64,000 bases of DNA from Heptranchias perlo (Eukaryota): assembly GCF_035084215.1 (NCBI RefSeq), contig NC_090331.1, forward strand, positions 97,154,001-97,218,000, read 5' to 3'. Shown piece by piece: positions 2,192 through 58,918 of this stretch. Each line of letters opens with the position of its first letter. Position 1 is the stretch's first letter. The notes under the pieces are model-generated. The model had not been told where the DNA came from. It searched no databases and saw nothing but the letters and a program-made list of their open reading frames with translations. The position numbers were made by a program, and so were the translations under genes.

Positions 2192-2322
2192 TGATGTGGA
2201 GATGCCGGTGATGGACTGGGGTTGACAATTGTAAACAATTTTACAACACCAAGTTATAGTCCAGCAATTTTATTTTAAATTCACAAGCTTTCGGAGGCTT
2301 CCTCCTTCCTCAGGTGAACAAT
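2192..2322 (-). mobile_element. Solo Penelope pLTR fragment (131 bp) with 10-bp TSD
   Basis: Near-identical to 33430-33556. Flanked by the direct repeat GTACAGAACA (2182-2191 and 2323-2332). Confidence 0.88.
2280..2318 (-). ncRNA. Minimal hammerhead ribozyme motif
   Basis: TTCAC-CTGAGGA-A-GGAGG AAG CCTCC-GAAA-GCTT-GTGAA. Confidence 0.8.
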
Positions 2323-7011: not shown

Positions 7012-9245
7012 GGGGAGAATTTTAACCCCCAAGAATGGGTGAGTTGAGGGCAGGTAGTTAAAATATTTGATTTTTGGAGCACGTCCGCAGTCCGGCTCCT
7101 TCGCGCCTTTTGGATGCGTGTGAGGAACCAAGTCACCACAGTCGGGACCTTAATTAGTTCAGGCGGGCGGGTATTTATAATATCCGTGTAAGACGTTAAG
7201 TAGGTCTTTTTACATTGAATTTGACTTAACTTTAAAGTTAATGCCTCTAATGCGGGTTTCCTGGGGCTTGTGAATCTCGGCAGTGAAAAGGAGGCGAGAA
7301 GGGCAGAATAATAAGTGCCTTTATTTCACAGTTTGTGGGCGAGGAGGGTCAGGAGTGTTCCTTCCAGGCCCAACAAACTTACCTACCACAATCAGACCCC
7401 CCCCCACTCTCCCCCAAGGATGTCCGAGCACATCCCGCAGTCTGAGACCTCTCCCCACCCCCACCCATGTCCGAGACCCTCCCACCGCCCCTCGTGTCCG
7501 AGACCTCCCAGGCCCCCCCCCCTCCACCACTCGTGTCCGAGACCCCTCCCGACCCCCCCATCCGTGTCCGAGAGCCCCCCCCGACCCCCCCACCCGTGTC
7601 CGAGAGATCCCCCCGACCCCCCCACCCGTGTCCGAGAGACCCCCCGACCCCCCCACCCGTGTCCGAGAGACCCCCCGACCCCCCCACCCGTGTCCGAGAG
7701 CCCCCCCCGACCCGTGTCCGAGAGCCCCCCCGACCCCTCCCACCCGTGTCCGAGAGCGCCCCCCGACCCCCCCCACCCGTGTCCGAGAGCGCCCCCCGAA
7801 CCCCCCCACCCGTGTCCGAGAGCCCCCCCCGACCCGCCCCCACCCGTGTCCGACAGCCCCACCGACACGCCCCCACCCGTGTCCGACAGCCCCATCGACC
7901 CGCCCCCACCCGTGTCCGACAGCCCCCTCCGACCCGCCCCCACCCGTGTCCGACAGCCCCCGACCAGCCCCCACCCGTGTCCGACAGCCCCCTCCGACCC
8001 GCCCCACCCGTGTCCGACAGCCCCCTCCGACCCGCCCCCACCCGTGTCCGACAGCCCCCTCCGACCCGCCCCCACCCGTGTCCGAGAGCCCCCCCCGACC
8101 CGCCCCCACCCGTGTCCGAGAGCCCCCCCGACCCGTGTCCGAGAGCCCCCCCCCGACCCGCCCCCACCCGTGTCCGAGAGCCCCCCCCGACCCGCCCCCA
8201 CCCGTGTCCGAGAGCCCCCCCCGACCCGCCCCCACCCGTGTCCGAGAGCCCCACCCCCCGGCCCCCACCTGTGTCCGAGAGCCCCACCCCCGGCCCCCAC
8301 CCGTGTCCGAGAGCCCCACCCCCGGCCCCCACCCGTGTCCGAGAGCCCCACCCCCCGGCCCCCACCCGTGTCCGAGAGCCCCACCCCCCGGCCCCCACCC
8401 GTGTCCGAGAGCCCCACCCCCCGGTCCCCACCCGTGTCCGAGAGCCCCACCCCCCGGCCCCCACCCGTGTCCGAGAGCCCCACCCCCCGGCCCCCACCCG
8501 TGTCCGAGAGCCCCACCCCCCGGCCCCCACCCGTGTCCGAGAGCCCCACCCCCCGGCCCCCACCCGTGTCCGAGAGCCCCACCCCCCGGCTCCCACCCGT
8601 GTCCGAGAGCCCCACCCCCCGGCCCCCACCCGTGTCCGAGAGCCCCACCCCCCGGCCCCCACCCGTGTCCGAGAGCCCGACCCCCCGGCCCCCACCCGTG
8701 TCCGAGAGCCCCACCCCCCGGCCCCCACCCGTGTCCGAGAGCCCCACCCCCGGCCCCCACCCGTGTCCGAGAGCCCCACACCCCGGCCCCCACCCGTGTC
8801 CGAGAGCCCCACCCCCCCCGGCCCCCACCCGTGTCCGAGAGCCCCACCCCCCGGGCTCCCACCCGTGTCCGAGAGCCCCACCTCCCGGCCCCCACCCGTG
8901 TCCGAGAGCCCCACCCGTGTCCGAGAGCCCCCCAGCTCCACCCACACACAAGGCCGTGTTCTCACCCCCTCCACAATTGCCCCCCACCCACCCAACCTCC
9001 AAAGACTCCAATCCCACCTCTGCCCCGGCTCCTTTCCCACCCAATTGGCAGCCCGCCTGTTAATTGGGCAAGCTGCCGGGCGCGACACCCGGATGTAAAA
9101 TTTTTATCATTCAATTGAGTTGTGATTGCAGATTCCGACCCGCTAACTTCACTTCCGGGTTTTGTGTTCGGTAAATTTACCACGCACTCTTCTGGGCTCC
9201 GAATCAAAATCCAGGCACATGACTCCCTCACTAGGATTTTCCCCC
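7012..9245. mobile_element. Harbinger-like MITE with an expanded internal minisatellite
   Basis: Imperfect TIRs GGGGAGAATTTT / GGATTTTCCCCC and a 3-bp TSD AGT (7009-7011, 9246-9248). The left arm is homologous to 17092-17500. Confidence 0.65.
7461..8933. repeat. C-rich minisatellite, about 30-31 bp unit CCCCACCCGTGTCCGAGAGCCCCACCCCCCGG
   Basis: Dozens of tandem copies of the near-invariant CACCCGTGTCCGA core with variable C tracts. Explains the six stop-free ORFs. Confidence 0.97.
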
Positions 9246-18400: not shown

Positions 18401-18500
18401 CCTTGATGAGCACAAGATTCAAAAGGTAAAAAGCTGGAAGCTTTGGCCACAAATCAAAAACTTTTTTTCTGCTGCACTTATTTTAAGCATTTTAACTCAC

Positions 18501-33429: not shown

Positions 33430-34589
33430 TGATGTGGAGATGCCGGTGATGGACTGGGGTTGACAATTGTAAACAATTTTACAACACCAAGTTATAGTCC
33501 AGCAATTTTATTTTAAATTCACAAGCTTTCGGAGATTTTCTCCTTCCTCAGGTAAATGTTTCAAGATCTCCTTGAAGCCTACGCATTTATACATATTGAA
33601 TAATACATGGTGTTTACAGACTGCCCCTGCAACTGCCCGTTGCCAAGGCAATCACCGTGTTCAGACAGAGAGGTGTCAGCTGCAGAACCCCCGAATACAC
33701 ATTCAACAAAAAAACAAACAGGGAAAAAAAACAGAGAAAAAAAAACACAGAGAGAGGCAGAAACATCCGGAAGGCAGAGAGAGCCAGCAAATGACCCATT
33801 ATATTAAAAACAGATAACATTTGTTCGCTGGTGGGGTAACGTGTAGCGTGACATGAACCCAAGATCCCGGTTGAGGCCGTCCTCATGGGTGCGGAACTTG
33901 GCTATCAATTTCTGCTCGACGATTTTGCGTTGTCGTGTGTCTCGAAGGCCGCCTTGGAGTACGCTTACCCGAAGGTCGGTGGATGAATGTCCATGACTGC
34001 TGAAGTGTTCCCCGACTGGGAGGGAACCCTCCTGTTTGGCGATTGTTGCGCGGTGTCCGTTCATCCGTTGTCGCAGCGTCTGCATGGTCTCGCCAATGTA
34101 CCATGCTCTGGGGCATCCTTTCCTGCAACGTATGAGGTAGACAACGTTGGCCGAGTCACAGGAGTATGAACCATGCACCTGGTGGGTGGTGTCATCTCGT
34201 GTGATGGTGGTATCTGTGTCGATGATCTGGCATGTCTTGCAGAGGTTACCGTGGCAGGGTTGTGTGGCGTCGTGGACGCTGTTCTCTTGAAAGCTGGGTA
34301 GTTTGCTGCGAACGATGGTCTGTTTGAGGTTGGGTGGCTGTTTAAAGGCGAGTAGTGGAGGTGTGGGGATGGCCATAGCGAGGTGTTTGTCCTCATTGAT
34401 GACATGTTGAAGGCTGCGGAGAACATGGCGTAGTTTCTCCGCTCCGGGGAAGTACTGGACGACAAAGGGTACTCTGTTGGTTGCGTCCCGTGTTAGTCTC
34501 CTGAGGAGGTCTATGCGATTTTTTGCTGTGGCCCGTCGGAACTGTCGATCGATGAGTCGAGCGTCATATCCCGTTCTTACTAGGGTGTC
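33430..34589 (-). mobile_element. 5'-truncated Penelope-like retroelement (RT C-terminal end, GIY-YIG endonuclease and 3' pLTR)
   Basis: The uninterrupted ORF 33804-~34588 contains PFVVQYFPG, PLLAFKQPPNLKQTIVRSKL, C..C..C, NVVYLIRC...YIGET.QTLRQRMNGHR, PVGEHF and GLNRD, diagnostic of the PLE linker and GIY-YIG domain. Its terminal part is shared with the copies at 2192 and 38558. Confidence 0.92.
33518..33556 (-). ncRNA. Minimal type I hammerhead ribozyme motif in the Penelope pLTR
   Basis: TTTAC-CTGAGGA-A-GGAGA AAA TCTCC-GAAA-GCTT-GTGAA: CUGANGA and GAAA cores, 5-bp stem II, palindromic AAGCTT stem III, closing stem I. Confidence 0.8.
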
Positions 34590-37745: not shown

Positions 37746-38557
37746 ACTGAGTGTCTCTCATCGCCAGTGCACTGGTGCATTTTTTTTAGTCCTGTACTAT
37801 TGTAATATCTCAGAACACTCACCCGATCAAATGACTATGTTTTACACCGAGTGAACTGTATAAAATTGCACATCATCAGCCATTGAATACATGGACTGTC
37901 CACTACTCAAACACTTAAAACATTTGCCCAATTAATTCCACAAAAGTGTCTATTGGGGGAGGGAAAAGTAACATTCATTCTTAATATGAAGAACACGGTG
38001 TCAAATGCTGCACAGAAACTCTGGTTTAATATGCTTTTTATGAGTTATAATACTTTTGACAGGGTGCTTCTTACATTCTGATTATGCAGAGGCCAGTGAA
38101 ATTGCTTAGCTCAACTACTGTTCCTTGGACCAACACTTCAAAACCATCACATCTCCTGTCCAAGACAACAGTAAGAAACATACTCAAATGATTACAGCAA
38201 AATGTTATTAAGTTTATTGTATTGTCTGTACATCCACGTGCTTGCACTATGTAACTAAAGAGAATGCTGCTAAAATTCTGCTGCAAGTGTTTCTTCTACA
38301 ATTGACAACCACACAACTAACAAAGTTGCAATTAAGTTACAAGTTAAGCATGGGGAAGGATTTTATTGCACCAGATTTTATTTTATTAAATACAATTACT
38401 TACTGGTAACTGAATGAACTAAAGAAAACCATTAATTAGTGCTCCAGGACCCAGTAGCAAAGTGCACTGTGCTATGCTACAGGATTGGTAAGGACAGACT
38501 TGATCTGCCACTCCAGTTTCAACTGTGCTGATGTAGGCAGAGGCTGAGCAGAGACTA

Positions 38558-38655
38558 CACATCGTTCACCTGAGGAAGGAGGTAGCCTCCGAAAGCTTGT
38601 GAATTTAAAATAAAATTGCTGGACTATAACTTGGTGTTGTAAAATTGTTTACAAT
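38558..38655 (+). mobile_element. Solo Penelope pLTR fragment (about 98 bp) with 13-bp TSD
   Basis: Reverse complement of about 2226-2320. Flanked by TGAGCAGAGACTA (38545-38557 and 38656-38668). Confidence 0.88.
38565..38603 (+). ncRNA. Minimal hammerhead ribozyme motif
   Basis: TTCAC-CTGAGGA-A-GGAGG TAG CCTCC-GAAA-GCTT-GTGAA. Confidence 0.8.
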
Positions 38656-41600
38656 TGAGCAGAGACTAGGCACTGCTCCAGGCAGGAATGGGAAAAATAA
38701 GAGTCCGAGAAATTGCTGCTTCTCTTCCAGAACTTGGCGCAGGAGATGTGCAGTATTGAGAGACTGTCATGTTTCAGGAAGCTTTGATCATTTTTGCACA
38801 GCAGGATTTGGAGGAGTGTTACATTTAAATATTGGGTTTTTAAAACAAAATATGCTAAAAAAAACCTCCAATATGAAAGGTGTTAAAATGTTAACAGGTC
38901 AGGAAATGAGGTTGTTTCCCCAAAGACTGAAAACAATATACAATTCATTAGCCTGTCTCAGTAATCCATAAAGACCACACATCCATTGTGTTAGGAGGTC
39001 CCTAGTCCCAGCGGATTATACTGCAAAGGTCCTCTCTCTGGTTGTAAACAAAGAGAGAGAAAAAGCGAAACAGGCAGATTTTTAATCAGAAAGTTGCAAG
39101 TGCAAGCTTTGGTCAGGTGCAGAAAGTCAGAATGCAAGAGAGTATTTAGAAATAATTTTAAGTCAGGCAAGATAACCCATTAATAATAATTATTTTTTAT
39201 TAATAGGCAAAGAAACATTGTGCTGATTGAAGTAAATGACTCTGACCATAACTGTATGCACATTTGTTGTGAAATAAAACAGCTTAATAATCCTCTTACC
39301 AAGTGTTTTTGCGAGCCACCTTGGAAAGACTGGAGACATGGATTATTGGGGGGGGCATGTGCAAAAGTCACAAATAATCAGTTCAGATCACAAGGGAGTA
39401 GTAATGTTACACCCCTGGGTTACACCATTGTATAGTTATTGGGCAGTATGGGCACACCCCTCAACGTAAAATTGCTTACAGGAATGGCTAGCACCGCTGT
39501 ACCCAAGAGACTATCTAAGGCAAGATCCAGGCTTGTACCAGAGAACAATGACAATAGAGAGAAAAACACAAGGATTGTCCTCACACAGGAAAATTGAAAT
39601 CCCACAACTTTTTCATGTGTATTTGTAATTTTCCCCAAACTAAAATTATCCTGAAATTAACAACAAATGTTGAAACTTTGTGTTCCCGAATTGGATCTAA
39701 ATGTTATTTAATTTGAGAGAGTAATTTTTGTAATTAAATTCAAAGAGTAATAATATAAAATACACCATAGGACTGGAGCAGTCAAGTTTTTTGTCTTTGC
39801 GGGCCACTTAAGTGCATACCATTGGAGCCTCACGGGTTACATACAAGTTTGAATCATTGTTGAGTTTGATTTACACACACCAGAAGCTGCAAGTAGCACA
39901 GATCGTGGTGTCCTTAATTAGGATTTATGAAAGTGAGGAAACAGCACCCAAGAACAGATTTTTCTAAACCGCTGTGTCAATAAAATTCAAACAGCAAATC
40001 CTAAGAAATATAAGTGCAAAAAGAACTGAGGCTAGGCTTCATGGGCCAGATTCTCATGGCTTGTTGGCCTATAGACAACAGCTTAGACACCCCATGAGTA
40101 GGTTAATCCCAAACCCAAATTTCATAAATCAATGCCTAATCCATATGATGGGAGATGCAGCGAATGCAATGACTAGAAGCTAAGAAAATACTCAGGAGTT
40201 GAATATAGTGAACAGACTCCTCTAATAGTCCAAATCTAAACAATGTGTTATAGCTGAGAATATTTCTGCAAATGATCCAATATTATCCAAAACCTTTCTA
40301 CAATGCTGATCCATTCAAAAAGCTCTTGAAAGAGTAACAGACATGGGCAGTAGTCTAGTGGCTGAAGCAAAAGAGAAACTGGTGTCAACACCTGTTTGAC
40401 AGGCTGTAATGTCAAGCTGCCAATTTGATTAACCTGTGGTGCTTTCTCTCGTGGAGTTGGAGCAGCAGTTGCACATGGTCAATGAAATACCAATCACTTC
40501 TGCTTCCTAAACAATGACTGACAATAAAAAGAATGTTCTTTATTGTTGGCACTTTGTAATTTCTAACAGATGGACTTGTGCATTTTTCTTTTTAAGTGTT
40601 TTGATAAATGTATAAATTGTTGGTCATCAGCTGGAGATTATATACATAACACATCTGTCTGAACATGTACAACTTCGTTATGCCAAGTAGGGACATATAC
40701 ATATGACATCTTAAGTGTAATATACCAATTAAATAATCAAGTATGATGTAGCCCTTTTAAGTACTGCCTGGGAACTCTTGTTAGAGAGTTCACTTGAAAA
40801 CTGGTTAATTTCACCTTATCAACAATTCAGTGTGGTAGCAGGCAGCACAGACTAGTCCCTCCACAAGGTTCTGCAAAATGTCATAGTTTGTCATCTCTGA
40901 AGTATCAAATAATAAGAATCAGTGTATTGGTAACTATCTATTTGCACCCAGAATGTAAAATTAACAGTAGGATAAACAAGGAATTCCAGTAGTTTGACAG
41001 TGAGTACTGAATCTATATGATTTTTCTTATTCTTCAAATTTTTACCAAGTGTTACTGGGAGGTTATTGAACAATAAAGGGTCCTTTAATACTCCCACCTG
41101 CTCAGGAAGTGTCTTCACACACTTGGCTGTGGTATTGTGAACCCTATTTTTGTTTTAGTTGATTGAGAAGCTATTTAAAATTTTTGCCTAACTTTGTAGT
41201 ACAGTAGCTCTAATATTTGAAAATACTTTTAAAAAGTAGTTCATTACCTGCTATGGTACTTTTAAGTGTTAAGAGGCTTTGGCAAAGGATAATGGTTTCC
41301 ACTGGGATATCTATTCTGCTGCTTTCAACAAGTCCATTAAGAGTATGAAAAACTACCCTGTATCAGTGGAAGAGCCTTCACATGAAAAGGTTTTATGTAC
41401 CCTTGATTTGCTGAAGCAAAATGTAAAAGAAATGGAACAAACTAGGTAGTTCTGTGACAATTAGTTAGTGGGTGCAAAGGCTCATCTCCACATTAGACTG
41501 CTGTTTCCAATTTACATTTTTGGTTGCTCTGCATCTATGTGTGGTGGGTTGATCTCTTTGAAAACAATAGATGCTTGAGAAAATTATGTTCAAAAGAGAA

Positions 41601-46868: not shown

Positions 46869-48517
46869 TCTATTGCTACACAACAATCTAAAGGGTCTTC
46901 ACACTGACAAGTCAAAACATCACTTCAATGCTGTACAATTAAAGTAGGTATATTTTACAAAACTGAATTATCCTGTACATATAATCCTACTGATAATCAA
47001 AATTGTTCAATTTGCAATCAGTTGGCAAAATTTTTTTAAAATATACAAAACCTAGACAATAACTACCAAGTCACTGAGCAACATTCCATCACAATTACTG
47101 TCAGACCACGAACATTCATCATGGCAACTTATGTTGCTAAATTCATTAACCACATTGTGATTTTCATATCAATTGACCTTCACAGAGATATATAGAAAAA
47201 CATGCAGTGTCTGGTGAGACAGAATTCACTACACCTGCCAAATAAGAAGATATTCTGCAATGGGATCTGAAACACATGTAAACACTTTAAAACTTACAGA
47301 CTGAGCATTTCATCCATTACAAGCATACACTGCAGTATTCTCACTGGGTTTATTTAACATGTTGGTACCAATGCACAATAGGCAAAATAAGCCAACAGAC
47401 TTAGAATTCACATCAAATTACTTCTCTCAAACATCACCAGTGACAAACTATAATCACTGTTTTGAATAGTTTGCAATCAGCAGACTTAAAGAAGGCTCTT
47501 GCAAGCAGCGTGTGCCGCAGTTGTATTGGACTAGCGGTCCAAGAGCAGTAAGTGCAGAGTGCAATTTGCAGTCAAACACTGGAATTGGTACTGCGGATGA
47601 AAAAACACACTCTAGCCACCAGAAGAAAACTGTTTTGCGTACGCATGCTTACACATTTCGAACTCCATGTGCAAGGCTCCACTCTCGGTCAGTACATTAC
47701 TGTTTCGAGGGTGCAGGCTGGAGCATGTTTTCTCAAAACATGAAGGAGACTCTTCTCCAGTGCCTAGGAGATCCAAATGAGCACCTGAACATTTTCTAAA
47801 CCCAGCTTGAAACCGCACCAGAGTTACACTCACGTGGTGTTAAACTCAAAAAGTGCAAAACAGCTTTCCTGTTGTCCCCAAGATCCAGGACTTGAACCAG
47901 GAGTTATGCTGTCATTTCATGTTGATGCACAGCAGTAACACAAACTGCTGGTGTAACTGCCTCCTTGATATACATGCTACTTGTGTAAAAAAAAACTGTT
48001 TCTAAATCAGCTCCAAACCTTTCCATTCCTAGTGACTTCAAAACATCATTTTAGTCAACCCTTTTTTCTGACCCACAGTGTTACAATAACCAGTTTTGCT
48101 AAGCCTCATGACCACCATATAGCACTTAGTTTATCCTGAAATATCCAATATTCTACAATTAAAAATATTCCAATGTGCTAACGATATTTAAAGCTGCTTA
48201 TTATTTGATAGAATCACTATTATAATGATTCGACAATCTATAGTCCATAAAATTTTTATACAAAAGTCTTTATTGATGTTTCTGTGCTCACTAAACTATT
48301 TCCCATTCTACCTATACTTAATCTCATGAAAGTCTTTCTGCCACGTCAAAGTGACCTGATTTACAGGAGCTCCCACTGGTGTGCAGCCTGTCAATTTGTG
48401 GAAGAAAAATTATAAAAAGGCTCCAGCAGGGTACATGCTCTGATGTGAGTTGCAGCTAATCCACTTGGCTGGAATTAAGGACTGAAAAGACAATACAATG
48501 TCAACAATTCTACTTAC

Positions 48518-49707
48518 ATTGGCGTATTCCTCTTCAATGAAATCTCTTCACTATCCAAATCCTCATCTGTGCTACTATCCGTTTCATCGGAATCCACACC
48601 GTCTTCTACGTGCGATAGCAGTGCTTTTGAAAAAGACGTACACTCGTAGAGTTCAGAGTTGATGGGATTTGGAATGAATCCAGTCTGCACACTGTCACCT
48701 TGCCTTAATCCAGCAAAAAAGGAAGGCTTGGGTTTTGAACTGTCAAATGTGTTTGGTGCCTTCTGCCTTTGCTGGTATGATTCTATCAACTCTTGCATTT
48801 TGTACTTAACATGGTGCTCAACATGCTTTGCCTGTATTATCTGCAAACGTTTTCGAAGTCTGCTGGCCTTTTTAGCTAGCTCTTGCTGTCTGCCAAGGCA
48901 CTCAAGCAGCTGAGTATTCATTTCAGTTTCCCTTGCACTTGTGGAATTACCAAGTCGTTTTTCTTGTTTTCTCTGGTGGGCCGATTGCCTGGCACTACTC
49001 AATAAATTTCCGATCTGAATGGCATCCACTGCTGGTACAGTACCCCAAATGTTGTTTGCTTTGGTTGGTTTCAACTCTGCCTTTTGATTTGAAGTTATGC
49101 CATCAGGAGCGTTGAGGTTCACTGAAACTGAATCACAGGCCAAATTCATCTCACTAGCAGCGGTTAATACGCCCTTACACTTCAAAGGACTGTTTTTCTG
49201 GCAGCTTAAGCCTTTCATACCATTTTTATTACTACTTAGCTTTGCTTCAGGTATAACATACTTTTTGCTAGCATTAGAAGCAGATGCTTGCTTAGTTCTA
49301 TCACAAGATAAATTATTTTTGGTAAGAATGACTGGAGAGTTTTTGCTAAACAATTTCTTCCTACTAGTAAGGTTATAGTTTAAAGACAACATGTCCAATA
49401 GAGAATTAGTACTGGTTAACAAGGCTGCTTTATTCGGGATTGAGGAGTGTACTATCGCCGATCCATAAGGTACGTGTTTCAAATCAGTTGCATCACTGTC
49501 GAGCCCATGTGCTGCACATGGATAAGCAAGTTGAGACCAAGCAGATTGTGTGTCACAATCCCCATTTAACTTCTGCTCTGCAGTGGTGTCATTCTTGTAC
49601 ATAAATGTGTCAGGCTCAATGGAACTGGAAGGTAAGGAGGATGACGACAGCTGGAATCCATGTCCCTCTGTGACTGTTTTGGTGAGAGCAGGAGGCATTG
49701 TAGCCAT
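48518..49707 (-). CDS. KANSL1L: KAT8 regulatory NSL complex subunit 1-like, first coding exon (exon 2; 5'UTR part extends to 49750)
   Basis: Reads MATMPPALTKTVTEGHGFQLSSSSLPSSSIEPDTFMYK...RQQELAKKASRLRKRLQIIQAKHVEHHVK...VDSDETDSSTDED, matching the KANSL1/KANSL1L N-terminus, coiled coil and acidic DSD.T.SS motif. Acceptor TTCCGTAG|G at 49751/49750; donor AT|GTAAGT at 48518/48517 (1190 nt, phase 2). Confidence 0.93.
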
Positions 49708-50830: not shown

Positions 50831-52225
50831 TTTTTTTTATTCGTTCACGGGATGTGGGCGTCGCTGGCAAGGCCGGCATTTATTGCCCATCCCTAATTGC
50901 CCTTGAGAAGGTGGTGGTGAGCCGCCTTCTTGAACCGCTGCAGTCCGTGTGGTGACGGTTCTCCCACAGTGCTGTTAGGAAGGGAGTTCCAGGATTTTGA
51001 CCCAGCGACAATGAAGGAACGGCGATATATTTCCAAGTCGGGATGGTGTGTGACTTGGAGGGGAACGTGCAGGTGGTGTTGTTCCCATGCGCCTGCTGCC
51101 CTTGTCCATCTAGGTGGTAGAGGTCGCGGGTTTGGGAGGTGCTGTCGAAGAAGCCTTGGCGAGTTGCTGCAGTGCATCCTGTGGATGGTGCACACTGCAG
51201 CCACAGTGCGCCGGTGGTGAAGGGAGTGAATGTTTAGGGTGGTGGATGGGGTGCTAATCAAGCGGGCTGCTTTATCTTGGATGGTGTCGAGCTTCTTGAG
51301 TGTTGTTGGAGCTGCACTCATCCAGGCAAGTGGAGAGTATTCCATCACACTCCTGACTTGTGCCTTGTAGATGGTGGAAAGGCTTTGGGGAGTCAGGAGG
51401 CGAGTCACTCGCCGCAGAAAACCCAGCCTCTGACCTGCTCTCGTAGCCACAGTATTTATATGGCTGGTCCAGTTAAGTTTCTGGTCAATGGTGACCCCCA
51501 GGATGTTGATGGTGGGGGATTCGGCGATGGTAATGTCGTTGAATGTCAAGGGGAGGTGGTTAGACTCTCTCTTGTTGGAGATGGTCATTGCCTGGCACTT
51601 ATCTGGCGCGAATGTTACTTGCCACTTATGAGCCCAAGCCTGGATGTTGTCCAGGTCTTGCTGCATGCGGGCTCGGACTGCTTCATTATCTGAGGGGTTG
51701 CGAATGGAACTGAACACTGTGCAGTCATCAGCGAACATCCCCATTTCTGACCTTATGATGGAGGGAAGGTCATTGATGAAGCAGCTGAAGATGGTTGGGC
51801 CTAGGACACTGCCCTGAGGAACTCCTGCAGCAATGCCCTGGGGCTGAGATGCTTGGCCTCCAACAACCACTACCATCTTCCTTTGTGCTAGGTATGACTC
51901 CAGCCACTGGAGAGTTTTCCCCCTGATTCCCATTGACTTCAATTTTACTCGGGCTCCTTGGTGCCACACTCGGTCAAATGCTGCCTTGATGTCAAGGGCA
52001 GTCACTCTCACCTCACCTCTGGAATTCAGCTCTTTTGTCCATGTTTGGACCAAGGCTGTAATGAGGTCTGGAGCCGAGTGGTCCTGGCGGAACCCAAACT
52101 GAGCATCGGTGAGCAGGTTATTGGTGAGTCAGTGCTGCTTGATAGCACTGTCGACGACACCTTCCATCACTTTGCTGATGATTGAGAGTAGACTGATGGG
52201 GCGGTAATTGGCCGGATTGGATTTG
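50831..52225 (-). mobile_element. Young 5'-truncated non-LTR retrotransposon of a second CR1-group family (RT domain, A-tailed)
   Basis: Intact 386-aa ORF with [33 protein letters not shown] and FADD. Short 3'UTR with AATAAA and a poly(A) tail. Confidence 0.9.
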
Positions 52226-53519
52226 ACTGGAACCCATCTATGAGCCTGGAAGGCACCCATCTGAAACTGGGGAAGGAAAGAAATATTACCGGCTGAGCAT
52301 CACTCCGTGCTCAAAAAGCTGGGAAGTTTCTGCGGATAGGCAGCTCTGGATTGCCTCACAGATCAGACTAAAGGACTGGCTATGGAACTGTTCTGGGATA
52401 TAGGCAGCTACTCCCGTCGTCAAAGTGACCTGGGAATGAAGGCAACCCAAAATAATAGAACTCTATTGGACAGCAAATTCAATCATATTCAAAGAAAAGT
52501 AATAGATCTATTTAATCTTGCATATTATTTTCAGATAGAGCTAGCAGCATATCAAGCACTTTGAACAGAAAGCACGTTATTTTTGATTATTACATTTTAA
52601 CTTCACGATTAAATATTTCACTTTTTTTCCTATGCCTCTAGCATCCCACCATCCATTCTGGAGATGGGACCCACAACTTGAAACAGTGGCTTCCAATTCC
52701 CTGGCTGATTATTCACTGAAATCAAAGCTTAGGACATTGTAATGTGACCTGGTGATGTCATGGAAGCAACCAGATCAAATCAATGACTTAAGACAAGTTA
52801 TATAATTCCAAGCACAGTGGCATTCCTGGCACCTACAAGGGCCATCATTGGGAATTTGGGTGGACTACACAGCCCCATCCACTGGCAAACTAATACTATT
52901 TCCCAAGATTGACATAATAGGTGTGTCAATCATTACAGCAAAGTCAAGATGATGCAGGGAGACAAACTGGTCATATGAATTCTCCAAATCAAATTTATTA
53001 AAATAGTACCCTCAACAGTTAATAATTACATTTAGAACAAATGTGACATCAAGTTTTGGCCTTTATGCAATTTGTACTAAATATTTATATAACAAACCTC
53101 AGGACTTCTGACTGAGAATACATATTTTCAAAATTGTAAAACCAATAGTGTTGACTCCATGTTTCTGTGGAATAATTTATCACATTTTAATTAGATTTTT
53201 CTCCTGATTTATAATAATTTCATACTATCAAACTAATTGGACCAAATCTTATCAAAAGGCATCTTTCAAAGATTCATTTGATTACAGTAATCAAAGATGA
53301 CAAAAGATTATTTTAAATCTATTTTCCCCCAACTATGTTCCAAATACAAATTCAGCAACTTCCACTTTTAATGTAGAAAATATTCCACACGTATAATTTA
53401 TAGTACTAGTCAATGAGACAATTCTACACTGCAAATACTAAAGTAGGCAAACTGGGAGCCGCTGAGTAGAGATTTACTGCACTAAACCCTCAATTGTTTT
53501 TGTGTTTATATTCTATATT

Positions 53520-53695
53520 CCATAGAATCATAGCATGTTACAGCACAGGAGGCGGCCATTCGGCCCATCGTGCCTGGGCTGGCTCTTTGAAAGAGCTATC
53601 CAATTGGTGCCTTTCCCCACAGTCCTGTAAAATTTCCCTTTTCCAAGAGTTACTACTGAATCTGCTTCCACCGCCCCTTCAGGCAGCGCATTCAC
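53520..53695 (-). mobile_element. CR1 3'UTR fragment
   Basis: Reverse complement of the 3' end seen at 4000-4178 and 50520-50716. Confidence 0.75.
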
Positions 53696-53699
53696 GGCC

Positions 53700-54650
53700 A
53701 ATTTTCTCCTCTCCGCTGCTTGCTGGGGGTACAGTCCCACTGGTGCCTGGCGTGAGCGCCCAACTAACTCACAGTCAGCCTGGACTAAGGGGCGGGGGCG
53801 GGGGGGCATCGCAGCTCCAGTCCCTGGCTCAGTGACACAGGGCACAAGAGGGAGGGTCGCCCGATGGCTCAGCCACCTACTCACCGATGAGCGCTGACCG
53901 ATCCCTGCCGACGGAGGCTGGGCGGGAGAGTGAATAAACCTTCCCACGTGAGCCTGCCGAGCCAGGCCCCGCCCTCGGGGCTCTCTTCACCGCCTCGCGG
54001 GGAGGCGCGGGGGGGGGAACGGACGTGTCTCGCCCTCGGGCTCTTCACCACATAAACACTCCGAGACCTCAGTCTCCCCACAAAAAAAAAACCCCGACTT
54101 TTCACATTAAAAGAAAAGTTCCGGCTACAGAACGAAAATATCCGCGACTTTTCCACACTTTATATATATTTAAAAAATTAAACACACTTCGATGTTTCCG
54201 TGACTGGAGAAATGGCGCCTGTTGTTTTGCGAGAAGCTTCGCTGTCTGCCTCCCTCACTGAGTGACGGATCAGCGACCGACTGCCTCCCGCTCGCTCCCA
54301 CTCTGACTGTTGTTGTTGTTGTCGTCGTCGTCGTCCTCGCTTCCCCTCTGTCATCATCACAGCGGGGGCGGGACAAACGGGTCACCCAGCAACGCACTTC
54401 TGATTGACGTTCCGCGCTAGCCAACCGCGCACTCCCCGCCCCCCCCCCCCGTCACTTTCACGAACTGCCCAATCGTCACGGCGCGGCTGGGAAGGGGGGG
54501 GGGGGGGGCGGAACGGAACGTCAAACCTGCCAATCACCGCCGACTCCCGCCCTCTGCCCACGCCCACAGGAGCAGCGTATGTGTAATCAGCCCCGCCCCT
54601 CCAGCTGTGATTGACAGGCCGTCACTCACCTGTTCAGCACTGAACTCTCT
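53700..54650 (-). promoter_or_regulatory. KANSL1L: CpG-island promoter and non-coding first exon region of KANSL1L
   Basis: Sharp rise in GC and CpG content. Several GC boxes (GGGGCGGG near 53790 and 54365, CCCCGCCCC near 54590), CCAAT boxes (near 54469 and 54529), a YY1-like AAATGGCG (near 54210) and an E-box CACGTG (near 53945). Candidate minus-strand donors CG|GTGAGT (53885/53884) and CA|GTGAGG (54259/54258). Lies about 4 kb upstream of exon 2. Confidence 0.8.
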
Positions 54651-56242
54651 TTCAAAAGTGGTGCAAGGATCTCATTTCGATTTAATGAAATATGGGTTGA
54701 AACTCCCACATTGTGGATTTGTTCTGGGTTTTTCAGACGAAGTTGGGCTTCCCCAGCATCTGTTCAGGTAAAACTGGCAAACGCTGTTGGAAATGTGAAT
54801 AAATCGATTCCAAAACTAGACATTTTCTACCACCTGACACACAGCATACGCTAAATGCAAACTATTTAAATAAAATGTTAACCATTAGAAATAAATGTAT
54901 ACATTTTTTAAAAAAACTAACAAAATATGACAATTTACAATTGCAATTAAATCCTACTTTAATTTTAGGATACAAAAATCAGCAGTAATTCTATTTAATA
55001 CTTTCGTTTTAATTTTCATTGTGCTTGCGAAATATGTATTTTCCCATCAATTTAAAACATACAAAGATTCTGAACAGCGCCAATTCCTTCATTAGAATTG
55101 TTTTTTTTGGCATGAGAACTTTGTTACATTTTTAGTGCGTGAAACAGCAGCGCACCTGCTTGTATCTAGTTTTATTACAACATAAAAAAATAAATCCTAC
55201 AACCTAATTACAATGAAAAATCCGACGGAGAGCCATTAAGTTTTAAAAGAGTTAGTGCATAAACACTCCATTTACAATCACATTGGCTCCGTGTTGAGAT
55301 TGATCGGTCTTAGATTCAGGTATACAAGGTACATTGTAAATTGTGGAGCTTTGGCACCATTAAAACTCACTCTAATAAATGGATCACTTTCTCCAAAAAA
55401 TCAAACCCGTTTTAAACTATTTTTCCACTGAAAAGGAATGTGAATTTCAGTAGAAACTAAACAAATCCTTTAAAAAAAACTAATTTGTGCTAAATATTAT
55501 CGAAGTTTATGTCTCATTAAGAAAAAAGTTAAAAAACTATCAGGGACAAATCATTAATGAGCACTGGCAAACGTAAGAGTTTTACTTTACTCATTTAATT
55601 TCTCCTCTTGGCTGTTCTGAGGCGTCCCTGGGCAGTGAAATGTGGCTCAATTGATAACTAACGGATTTCTGTGGATTCCGTTAAAGAATAGGACATAAAA
55701 CCTAATCGTTCTTTAAAATCCGTTCAAATTATTCGTTCCACCGCCTGGTTCTGATCAGATCTCAGCAGCAGATCAAAACTTAAATGAACCGGAAAATAAA
55801 CGGATCCAAATCAACAGGAATATTTTTTCAGCCAGCAAATGTTTCGCCACATTGTGTGATGGTGACCTTCCTACACACACATAATGGCACCCCGCCCTCT
55901 TCAACAAGAGGACTGGATCCCGCTTTATCTAATGAGTCCAAGTGTCAGGGAATGAAAATCATGAAACACACAAGGGGGAAAGGTAAGAGGTGCAAATCAT
56001 CCATTAGTGGCTGGAAACTGGGATTATTAATGCACAACCCCCCTCGACATCACCCACTCCCTCACCCGGGTGGCCCTGGAGAGGGATCACATGCATGCTT
56101 GAGGCCTTCTTCAACCAGCGGGCACCTCAGGTGTTAACTGTCATTGAACATGAGAACGAGATTTTTATTTTGTTCTATTTTGCACATCATTCAGTTTAAT
56201 TAAGTGATCTACAAGAGTGTTTTTTAGTGGTGCCCTCCTCAG

Positions 56243-57329
56243 AGTCAATGGGAATCAGGGGGAAAACTCCCCAGTGGCTGGAGTCATACCTAACCCAAAG
56301 GAAGATGGTAGTGGTTGTTGGAAGCCAATCATCTCAGCCCCAGGACATTGCTGCAGGAGTTCCTCAAGGCAGTGTCCTAGGCCCAACCATCTTCAGCTGC
56401 TTCATCAATGACCTTCCCTCCATCATAAGGTCAGAAATGGGGATGTTCGCTAATGATTGCACAGTGTTCAGTTCCATTCGCAACCCCTCAAATAATGAAG
56501 CAGTCCGAGCCCGCATGCAGCAAGACCTGGACAACATCCAGGCTTGGGCTCATAAGTGGCAAGTAACATTCGCGCCAGATAAGTGCCAGGCAATGACCAT
56601 CTCCAATAAGAGAGAGTCTAACCATCTCCCCTTGACATTCAACGGCATTACCATCGCCGAATCCCCCACCATCAACATCCTGGGGGTCACCATTGACCAG
56701 AAACTTAACTGGACCAGCCATATAAATACTGTGGCTACAAGAGCAGGTCAGAGGCTGGATATTCTGTGGCGAGTGACTCACCTCCTGACTCCTCAAAGCC
56801 TTTCCACCATCTACAAGGCACAAGTCAGGAGTGTGATGGAATACTCTCCACTTGCTTGGATGAGTGCAGCTCCAACAACACTCAAGAAGCTCGACACCAT
56901 CCAAGATAAAGCCCGCTTGATTAGCACCCCATCCACCACCCTAAACATTCACTCCCTTCACCGGCGCACTGTGGCTGCAGTGTGTACCATCCACAGGATG
57001 TACTGCAGCAACTTGCCAAGGCTTCTTCGACAGCACCTCCCAAACCCGCAACCTCTACCACCTAGAAGGACAAGAGCAGCAGGCACATGGGAACAACACC
57101 ACCTGTACGTTCCCCTCCAAGTCACACACCATCCCGACTTGGAAATATATCGCCGTTCCTTCATCATCGCTGGGTCAAAATCCTGGAACTCCCTTCCTAA
57201 CAGCACTGTGGGAGAACTGCAGCGGTTCAAGAAGGCGGCTCACCACCATCTTCTCAAGGGCAATTAGGGATGGGCAATAAATGCTGGCCTCGCCAGCGAC
57301 GCCCACATCCCTGAACGAATAAAAAAAAG
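56243..57329 (+). mobile_element. Second copy of the same young LINE family, inverted relative to 50831-52225
   Basis: 346-aa ORF nearly identical to the C-terminal part of the 386-aa ORF, with the same 3'UTR and A tail. Confidence 0.9.
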
Positions 57330-58727: not shown

Positions 58728-58918
58728 AATATTATAGCACATAATTTTATAAACATTTTCAATTCTTTTCATCTTGGAGGCTGCGATGTGGTGCAATATA
58801 ACTGGGTACAACAGCCCAGCAATATAGTAATGAGGGAAGGGACAAATGTCTCAAGACCATAGCAGCCTCCAAGATGAAAAGAATTGAAAGTGTTTATAAA
58901 ATTATGTGCTATAATATT
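58728..58918. repeat. 61-bp inverted repeat (2 mismatches) with a 69-bp spacer
   Basis: 58728-58788 against the reverse complement of 58858-58918. Confidence 0.9.

Follow-up and report, generated by a model that had tools for sequence, protein, structure and literature searches.

Minimal hammerhead motifs of a probable Neptune-type Penelope-like element in KANSL1L introns of the shark Heptranchias perlo are likely latent and dimer gated

Minimal hammerhead ribozymes (min-HHR) in the pLTRs of metazoan Penelope-like elements (PLEs) were described in 2014 (Cervera and De la Pena, PMC4209133), and, according to the accessible portion of that report, single minimal motifs exhibited no cleavage in vitro and dimers were cleaved weakly. 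The available sections of a study of the green anole (PMC11167929) indicate that the motif of this species cleaves only with the protein of the element and is dispensable for insertion in vitro, that unprocessed RNA is the main insertion substrate, and that reverse transcription starts at two internal sites. One of nine Xenopus dimers is given as cleaved in the accessible text of a recent retrozyme preprint (bioRxiv 2026.07.22.740005), which covers one chondrichthyan and reports no PLEs other than Neptune and Poseidon from vertebrates, while a Zn-finger linker (CX2-5CxxC) between the reverse transcriptase (RT) and the endonuclease is ascribed to Neptune, and shared with Nematis, in the available part of a further preprint (bioRxiv 2021.04.23.441226). 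In the accessible text of PMC11167929 and bioRxiv 2021.04.23.441226, two 3′ ends, fold-back pairs, and tandem units are listed as PLE hallmarks, and what PLE hammerheads do is regarded as unclear to date. With regard to promoters, a predicted TATA box with an initiator has been noted in rotifer pLTRs (PMC3846280) and an internal, TATA-less promoter in the Drosophila element (PMC2377424), as far as the available sections of these papers extend. A literature search combining shark, Penelope, and hammerhead ribozyme, in which few subscription papers were covered, returned a single paper, in which the word shark merely describes a shape; sharks are not named in the accessible text of PMC4209133, and the supplements of that paper and of the retrozyme preprint may list cartilaginous fish.

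The stretch of Heptranchias perlo DNA analyzed in this study (64,000 nucleotides; here termed the window) had originally been predicted to contain three hammerhead ribozymes in a Penelope terminal repeat inside the gene KANSL1L. It is proposed here, with a probability of approximately 70%, that the motif represents the minimal pLTR hammerhead of a young Neptune-type PLE, that it is latent and dimer gated, cutting a minority of transcripts, probably with the help of protein, and that the three copies are passengers. As this kind of ribozyme is already known, the motif itself is unsurprising; the family is of modest value as a test system, combining an intact frame with tens of thousands of nearly identical copies whose insertion ends can be counted.

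The three 39-nucleotide motifs are located, as predicted, at positions 33518 to 33556 (minus strand; type A promoter, A-U as the closing pair of stem II, sense to KANSL1L), 2280 to 2318 (minus strand; type B, sense), and 38565 to 38603 (plus strand; type B, antisense). The copy at 33518 consists of stem I TTTAC/GTGAA, the core CTGAGGA, an extra A, GGAGA-AAA-TCTCC, and then GAAAGCTT; both of the other copies harbor stem I TTCAC/GTGAA and a stem II in which GGAGG and CCTCC enclose AAG or TAG. We take the motif to correspond, in hammerhead numbering, to C3-U4-G5-A6-G7-G8-A9, an extra A, stem II, G12-A13-A14, A15.1-G-C-U16.1, and U17, from which a cut is predicted after GAAAGCUU, i.e., between 33523 and 33522 (minus strand), between 2285 and 2284 (minus strand), and between 38598 and 38599 (plus strand). 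The cut site proposed originally, as a prediction, agrees with this standard numbering. The core boxes CUGANGA and GAAA...UH are present in all three motifs, in the type I order of helices I and II, as are an extra nucleotide separating positions 9 and 10.1, a G10.1-C11.1 pair, and a palindromic 15.2-16.2, features named in the available text of PMC4209133, and the identification as a minimal type I hammerhead is thus upheld. A search with Rfam hammerhead models, applied to the window and to positions 33490 to 33590, gave no hammerhead family at E values of up to 10. Stems I and II occur in the minimum-energy fold of each motif with z-scores of -1.05 to -1.40, so that folding energy by itself is not above chance; what is above chance is the exact core in register coupled with membership in a repeat family (39,542 matches, compared to 0 for a reversed-pattern control). 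A six-letter palindrome does exist where stem III would be expected, but helix III of the active dimer would comprise AGCU only (A15.1-U16.1), as the palindrome also includes core A14 and the cleavage-site U17. The flanks of approximately 90 nt that had been considered invariant are so downstream (approximately 88 nt in two copies and 55 nt in the 38565 copy, whose shared flank stops at 38655) but not upstream, where the 33518 copy bears no relation to the others and differs in promoter type.

The presumed single terminal repeat proved to be three separate insertions, namely, one 5′-truncated copy and two solo pLTR fragments. The truncated PLE (33430 to 34589, minus strand), which encompasses the frame end, 3′ UTR/pLTR, hammerhead, hairpin, and tail, is 99.7% identical over 1,160 bp to a full-length 3,081-bp unit (locus L061), and its portion of the frame (33804 to 34586, minus strand), representing the C-terminal part with a CX4CxxC linker and a GIY-YIG-type endonuclease, is open up to the stop. 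A TATA-box-like motif at 33582 to 33591 (minus strand), the putative promoter with a start approximately 30 nt downstream, is retained across all subfamilies, although the spacer between it and the hammerhead is not. Compared with loci L076, L174, and L179, this spacer (33557 to 33591, minus strand) is scarcely alignable, although the coding parts differ by only 1 to 8% at fourfold sites; promoters may have been swapped, or this region may turn over rapidly. Tail-less insertions end at the 3′ base of a hairpin with a 7-bp stem and a 4-nt loop (33467 to 33484, minus strand), beyond which an optional 36-nt tail (33431 to 33466, minus strand) corresponds to the sequence directly 5′ of the ATG of the frame in the full-length unit. 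The equivalent hairpin of the sister branch displays a two-sided A-U to G-C change with G-U intermediates (L174 and other sister loci), and some sister-branch variants disrupt it. When a target-site duplication was sought at the ends of the 33518 copy, none was clear, the best being 6 bp. The solo insertions consist of 131 bp with the tail (2192 to 2322, minus strand), bounded by a 10-bp target-site duplication (2182 to 2191 and 2323 to 2332), and of 98 bp without it (38558 to 38655, plus strand), bounded by a 13-bp duplication (38545 to 38557 and 38656 to 38668). That the 38565 copy might start with a permuted tail, marking a circle junction, was considered and rejected, its first bases being those of the normal type B variant.

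In the 3,081-bp unit, the TATA-like box is followed after 39 to 47 nt by the core of the hammerhead, and the hammerhead after a further 47 nt by the hairpin; then come the 36-nt tail, the ATG, the 902-amino-acid frame, and the 3′ UTR. The unit occurs in tandem elsewhere in the genome. Its frame is intact and contains RVT_1 (42 bits; cutoff, 29.6), a DKG motif, the CX4CxxC linker, and a predicted GIY-YIG-type C terminus, the endonuclease call being based on the motif and a cluster lead, as 31 to 34% of the members of the nearest clusters (at 0.96) carry PF01541. A Pfam search of the endonuclease piece from the window copy and from the 902-amino-acid frame gave no endonuclease match, and a search of solved structures retrieved nothing related under an E value of 0.24. 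The family exhibits the features of EN+ PLEs, i.e., one frame with an RT plus a GIY-YIG endonuclease at its C terminus (the latter by motif and cluster lead), partial tandems (pLTR), inverted 5′ copies, and an optional tail of 30 to 40 bp; together with the 99.7% match to an RT-endonuclease unit, these hallmarks bear out the original assignment to a PLE with a pLTR hammerhead. The CX4CxxC linker, which marks Neptune or Nematis, points to a Neptune-type element. The downstream anchor has 47,612 exact matches genome-wide, and intact-core motifs number at least 39,542 in the branch of the window (approximately 12 per Mb) and 27,079 in a sister branch; the tail-frame junction accounts for 674 exact matches. 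All 40 scored matches to the 211 bp around the 33518 motif are 100% identical, from which the family is judged to be young and, given the intact frame, recently mobile, as had been anticipated. At fourfold sites of the endonuclease, types A and B differ by 1 to 3%, and both differ from the sister branch by 4 to 8%.

Constraint on the fold was assessed in the first 100 anchor matches, picked irrespective of the motif, among which 78 possessed a whole motif, whereas 22 were truncated within the motif or beyond it. The loop-closing fifth pair of stem II is paired in 76 of the 78 whole motifs (G-C in 38, A-U in 20, and G-U in 18) and is A.C in 2. The G-C to A-U swap that had been described as compensatory is, therefore, real, separating subfamilies with a G-U intermediate, but in the sister branch, for which the search pattern fixed the core, a hand count of 100 listed motifs found this pair mismatched in 42 (A.C in 29, G.G in 12, and G.A in 1), the remainder being A-U (40), G-C (9), C-G (7), G-U (1), and one insertion. 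The other four pairs of stem II displayed no two-sided change. Among sixteen hand-chosen haplotypes, 93.1% of cells were paired, compared to 30 to 54% in slid controls; two-sided change occurred at only 1 of 10 pairs, a result equaled by 407 of 500 shuffles; one-sided wobble changes occurred at 4 pairs; and the fifth pair was open in 3 of 16. Recurrent variation in the branch of the window affects seven positions, comprising stem I wobbles (two positions, U-G and G-U), N7, the fifth pair, and loop II, with none in the core, and all seven are tolerated (P = 0.0001 to 0.0004 under a uniform null with terminal pairs free, the positions having been picked after looking). Core changes were observed in 4 of the 78 motifs, every one at the CpG C11.1-G12. 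Because the subfamilies are close (1 to 8% at fourfold sites), an invariant core is weak evidence by itself, and synonymous divergence was rejected as a neutral yardstick, being too low to reveal constraint. Apart from the fifth pair, the fold appears to be constrained, and stem II seems to require four pairs, the fifth being optional.

Insertion ends were mapped in the first 5.5 Mb of one contig, with a few segmental duplicates retained. Two 3′ ends were apparent, one at the hairpin base and the other at the end of the tail, which was present in 49 of 100 copies, and 20 fold-back pairs were counted among 80 merged sites. Once the fold-back arms had been merged, the sites numbered 76, of which 48 were short. 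Among these short copies, 18 of 48 start 29 to 31 nt past the first T of the TATA-like box with the hammerhead whole (8 of 16 whole-motif copies of type A and 10 of 21 of type B). This interval lies 8 to 10 nt ahead of the core in type A but 15 to 17 nt ahead of it in type B, and the 5′ hot spot thus tracks the TATA box rather than the stem; the two solo copies of the window begin 9 to 12 nt before the core, falling 3 to 7 nt short of the hot spot of type B. A splice acceptor was rejected as the source of the hot spot, since AG is absent there in both types. We infer that transcription starts approximately 30 nt past the TATA-like box and that the short copies are run-off copies of an uncut leader, for which the 18 copies with a whole motif indicate uncut templates.

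A genome-wide search for a sharp peak of 5′ ends at the predicted cut found none. Starts exactly at the cut, with two nonmatching bases before, numbered 109 among the 47,612 anchor copies (well under 1%), compared to 31 at 4 nt upstream and 150 at 2 nt downstream, approximately 39 of 100 listed examples of the last appearing to be point changes. When 30 of the 109 loci were read by eye, 5 were found to be fold-back junctions formed via stem I microhomology and 1 an internal deletion, and of 70 examined among the 674 junction-bearing near-full-length copies, 1 starts at the predicted cut. The 3.5-fold excess at the cut over the position 4 nt upstream (109 versus 31) could reflect some cleavage; overall, the ends of the insertions are suggestive of a TATA-driven transcript in which the motif stands at the head and is mostly uncut, which agrees with the in vitro result, in the accessible part of PMC11167929, that uncut RNA is the main template. 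That transcription would start just upstream of the ribozyme is a specialist detail and is silent on KANSL1L.

Such ends are also what would be seen if the motif were conserved as a structure, i.e., a protein-binding or translation-control element of the leader, with a negligible cleavage rate in every context. The AGCU duplex of a dimer is weak, at -2.5 kcal/mol, and the dimer folded without constraints does not adopt the active structure; furthermore, eight of nine Xenopus dimer constructs remained uncleaved (available text of bioRxiv 2026.07.22.740005), and hammerhead mutants had no effect on insertion in vitro (accessible sections of PMC11167929). Variation that hits N7 and spares the catalytic positions is, however, the pattern to be expected if catalysis were selected for; moreover, the anole motif is cleaved when protein is present (same sections), and circularization would restore the junction, leaving no ends at the cut. 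We regard a purely structural role as quite unlikely and retain a latent, dimer-gated ribozyme as the preferred reading.

The same reasoning, whereby a cut and religated circle leaves no ends at the cut, makes the lack of a peak compatible with the model of Cervera and De la Pena, in which the ribozyme routinely makes RNA circles, tandem or multimeric insertions arise by rolling reverse transcription, and unit-length RNA is cleaved as a rule. Two neighboring 3,081-bp units show 0 differences, many near-full-length copies reach past the inferred start into the preceding unit, and a 404-bp unit with 10 hammerheads lies within a single 13-bp target-site duplication, all of which such a model would accommodate. 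Read-through of a tandem master, template jumps, or later unequal crossing-over would, however, yield the same structures, the 404-bp junction is found at a single locus (9 of 9 matches), and the short copies that end near TATA+30 require linear, uncut RNA; routine circle formation is, on balance, unlikely. The 404-bp array itself (L267:557-4382; G000:C2, approximately 21,272,856 to 21,276,681) consists of an internally deleted derivative of the element with 10 intact hammerheads, in which 7 of 8 internal units are identical and the junction is unique to the locus. It looks like a newborn retrozyme array; the idea of a 404-bp retrozyme family that propagates itself was rejected, as only one locus is known to carry the junction. 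At L258:1250-1700, a second deletion derivative, likewise short, carries two hammerheads 256 bp apart, with the tail and the first approximately 90 bases of the frame between them.

The host gene was correctly recognized as KANSL1L on the minus strand: a 397-amino-acid frame at 49707 to 48517 (minus strand), its first coding exon (48517 to 49707), is 100% identical to the Heptranchias perlo KANSL1L protein, and mapping of that protein placed five coding exons inside the window, the others being 27577 to 27437, 24696 to 24499, 23801 to 23688, and 18695 to 18498 (minus strand), with eight more to the left of it. The gene thus runs past position 1, the condition originally attached to the 2280 copy, and this copy is consequently intronic and sense, being located in the intron following the exon end at 18498, while the 33518 and 38565 copies share the intron following the first coding exon. 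A Pfam search of the KANSL1L exon gave no match. A GC-rich region near 53,500 to 54,800 is probably the KANSL1L promoter, and on either side of it are inverted 3′ parts of LINE RTs, 95% identical to each other (50831 to 51938 and 56243 to 57328). The window also contains a GC-rich tandem repeat of approximately 1.5 kb with a period of approximately 33 bp and long simple-repeat open frames on both strands (7440 to 8931) and an imperfect palindrome of 190 bp that is 76% self-complementary (58728 to 58918).

Two of the window hammerheads are sense and one is antisense to KANSL1L, and the 80 kb to the left of the window hold two more motifs, one per direction, giving three sense and two antisense motifs in the 144 kb examined. 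Approximately 18 kb left of the window (L066:1593-2275), a KANSL1L intron contains two further copies of the family, oppositely oriented and separated by 370 bp, which probably represent one fold-back insertion. The suggestion that sense copies could cut KANSL1L pre-mRNA, altering its splicing or output, may draw on the intact cores of the three sense intronic copies (two in the window and one to its left) and on the conserved intronic hammerheads of amniotes (available text of PMC6155905). It is, nonetheless, very improbable: lone monomers lack helix III, and single minimal motifs were uncleaved in vitro in the accessible portion of PMC4209133; the sense pair of the window lies 31 kb apart in different introns, and with the closest sense partners 20 to 31 kb off and exons between, pairing is unlikely; and the insertions are nearly identical to a family of tens of thousands of scattered copies, which also indicates that they are recent. 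The local density of 5 motifs in 144 kb, compared to approximately 12 same-branch copies per Mb genome-wide, is unremarkable, as the window was chosen for its motifs. Nothing suggests a host-gene role for the three insertions, which appear as passengers in introns.

In the mechanism proposed for the latent, dimer-gated ribozyme, transcription would begin approximately 30 nt past the TATA box, a start that would place the hammerhead at the capped end of the element RNA, with a repeat of it at the 3′ end. The element protein would nick DNA and prime reverse transcription at an internal site of the RNA, either the hairpin or the end of the tail; priming in the 3′ repeat would produce long 5′-truncated copies, such as that at 33518, and priming in the 5′ leader, with run-off at the RNA 5′ end, would produce solo copies of 100 to 135 bp, such as those at 2280 and 38565. 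A single motif without a closable helix III would remain off, while two motifs may pair via AGCU, probably assisted by protein, and excise unit-length RNA in a minority of transcripts, which may then circularize and template tandem insertions. It is because two motifs can pair through AGCU and cut that the motif is proposed to be under selection. A wider interpretation, that the ends in this family chronicle how a vertebrate Neptune element propagates, in which the uncut leader of a TATA-driven transcript with a latent hammerhead generates tens of thousands of 100- to 135-bp mini-insertions and dimer-gated cleavage and circularization of unit-length or deleted RNAs generate tandem copies and new retrozyme arrays, the 404-bp array with 10 hammerheads being an example, is possible but doubtful; if true, the function of PLE hammerheads would become directly testable, owing to the intact frame and many young copies.

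Compared with described systems, the shark motif appears, from its sequence, to share each feature listed for min-HHR in the accessible text of PMC4209133, and the family, with at least 66,600 copies in two branches, exceeds the 4,000 and 9,000 copies given there for coelacanth and Xenopus tropicalis, respectively, although search methods differ. The Schistosoma families of the same text possess a helix II of 7 to 8 bp, whereas that of the shark motif has 4 to 5 bp. The Poseidon element PAc of the green anole (Frangieh et al. 2024), as described in the available sections of PMC11167929, likewise has a hammerhead near the frame start, two reverse transcription start sites that bound the tail with a stem-loop at the start site (predicted from sequence in the shark), and no sign of ends at the cut. 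In PAc, however, the start codon falls within the hammerhead and the tail within the frame, whereas the hammerhead and tail of the shark element lie fully upstream of the ATG, and the shark element also carries the Zn-finger linker, which is absent from Poseidon. Non-LTR retrozymes, as defined in the accessible text of bioRxiv 2026.07.22.740005 by at least two tandem units each with a hammerhead, are also PLE-derived type I hammerheads, and the 404-bp array at L267 alone corresponds to this definition, the window copies being dispersed monomers or solo copies with target-site duplications. Finally, an intron location is shared with the hammerheads of amniotes (RECK and others), but these, according to the available portion of PMC6155905, are old, conserved, and canonical, whereas the shark copies are recent, minimal, and identical to their family.
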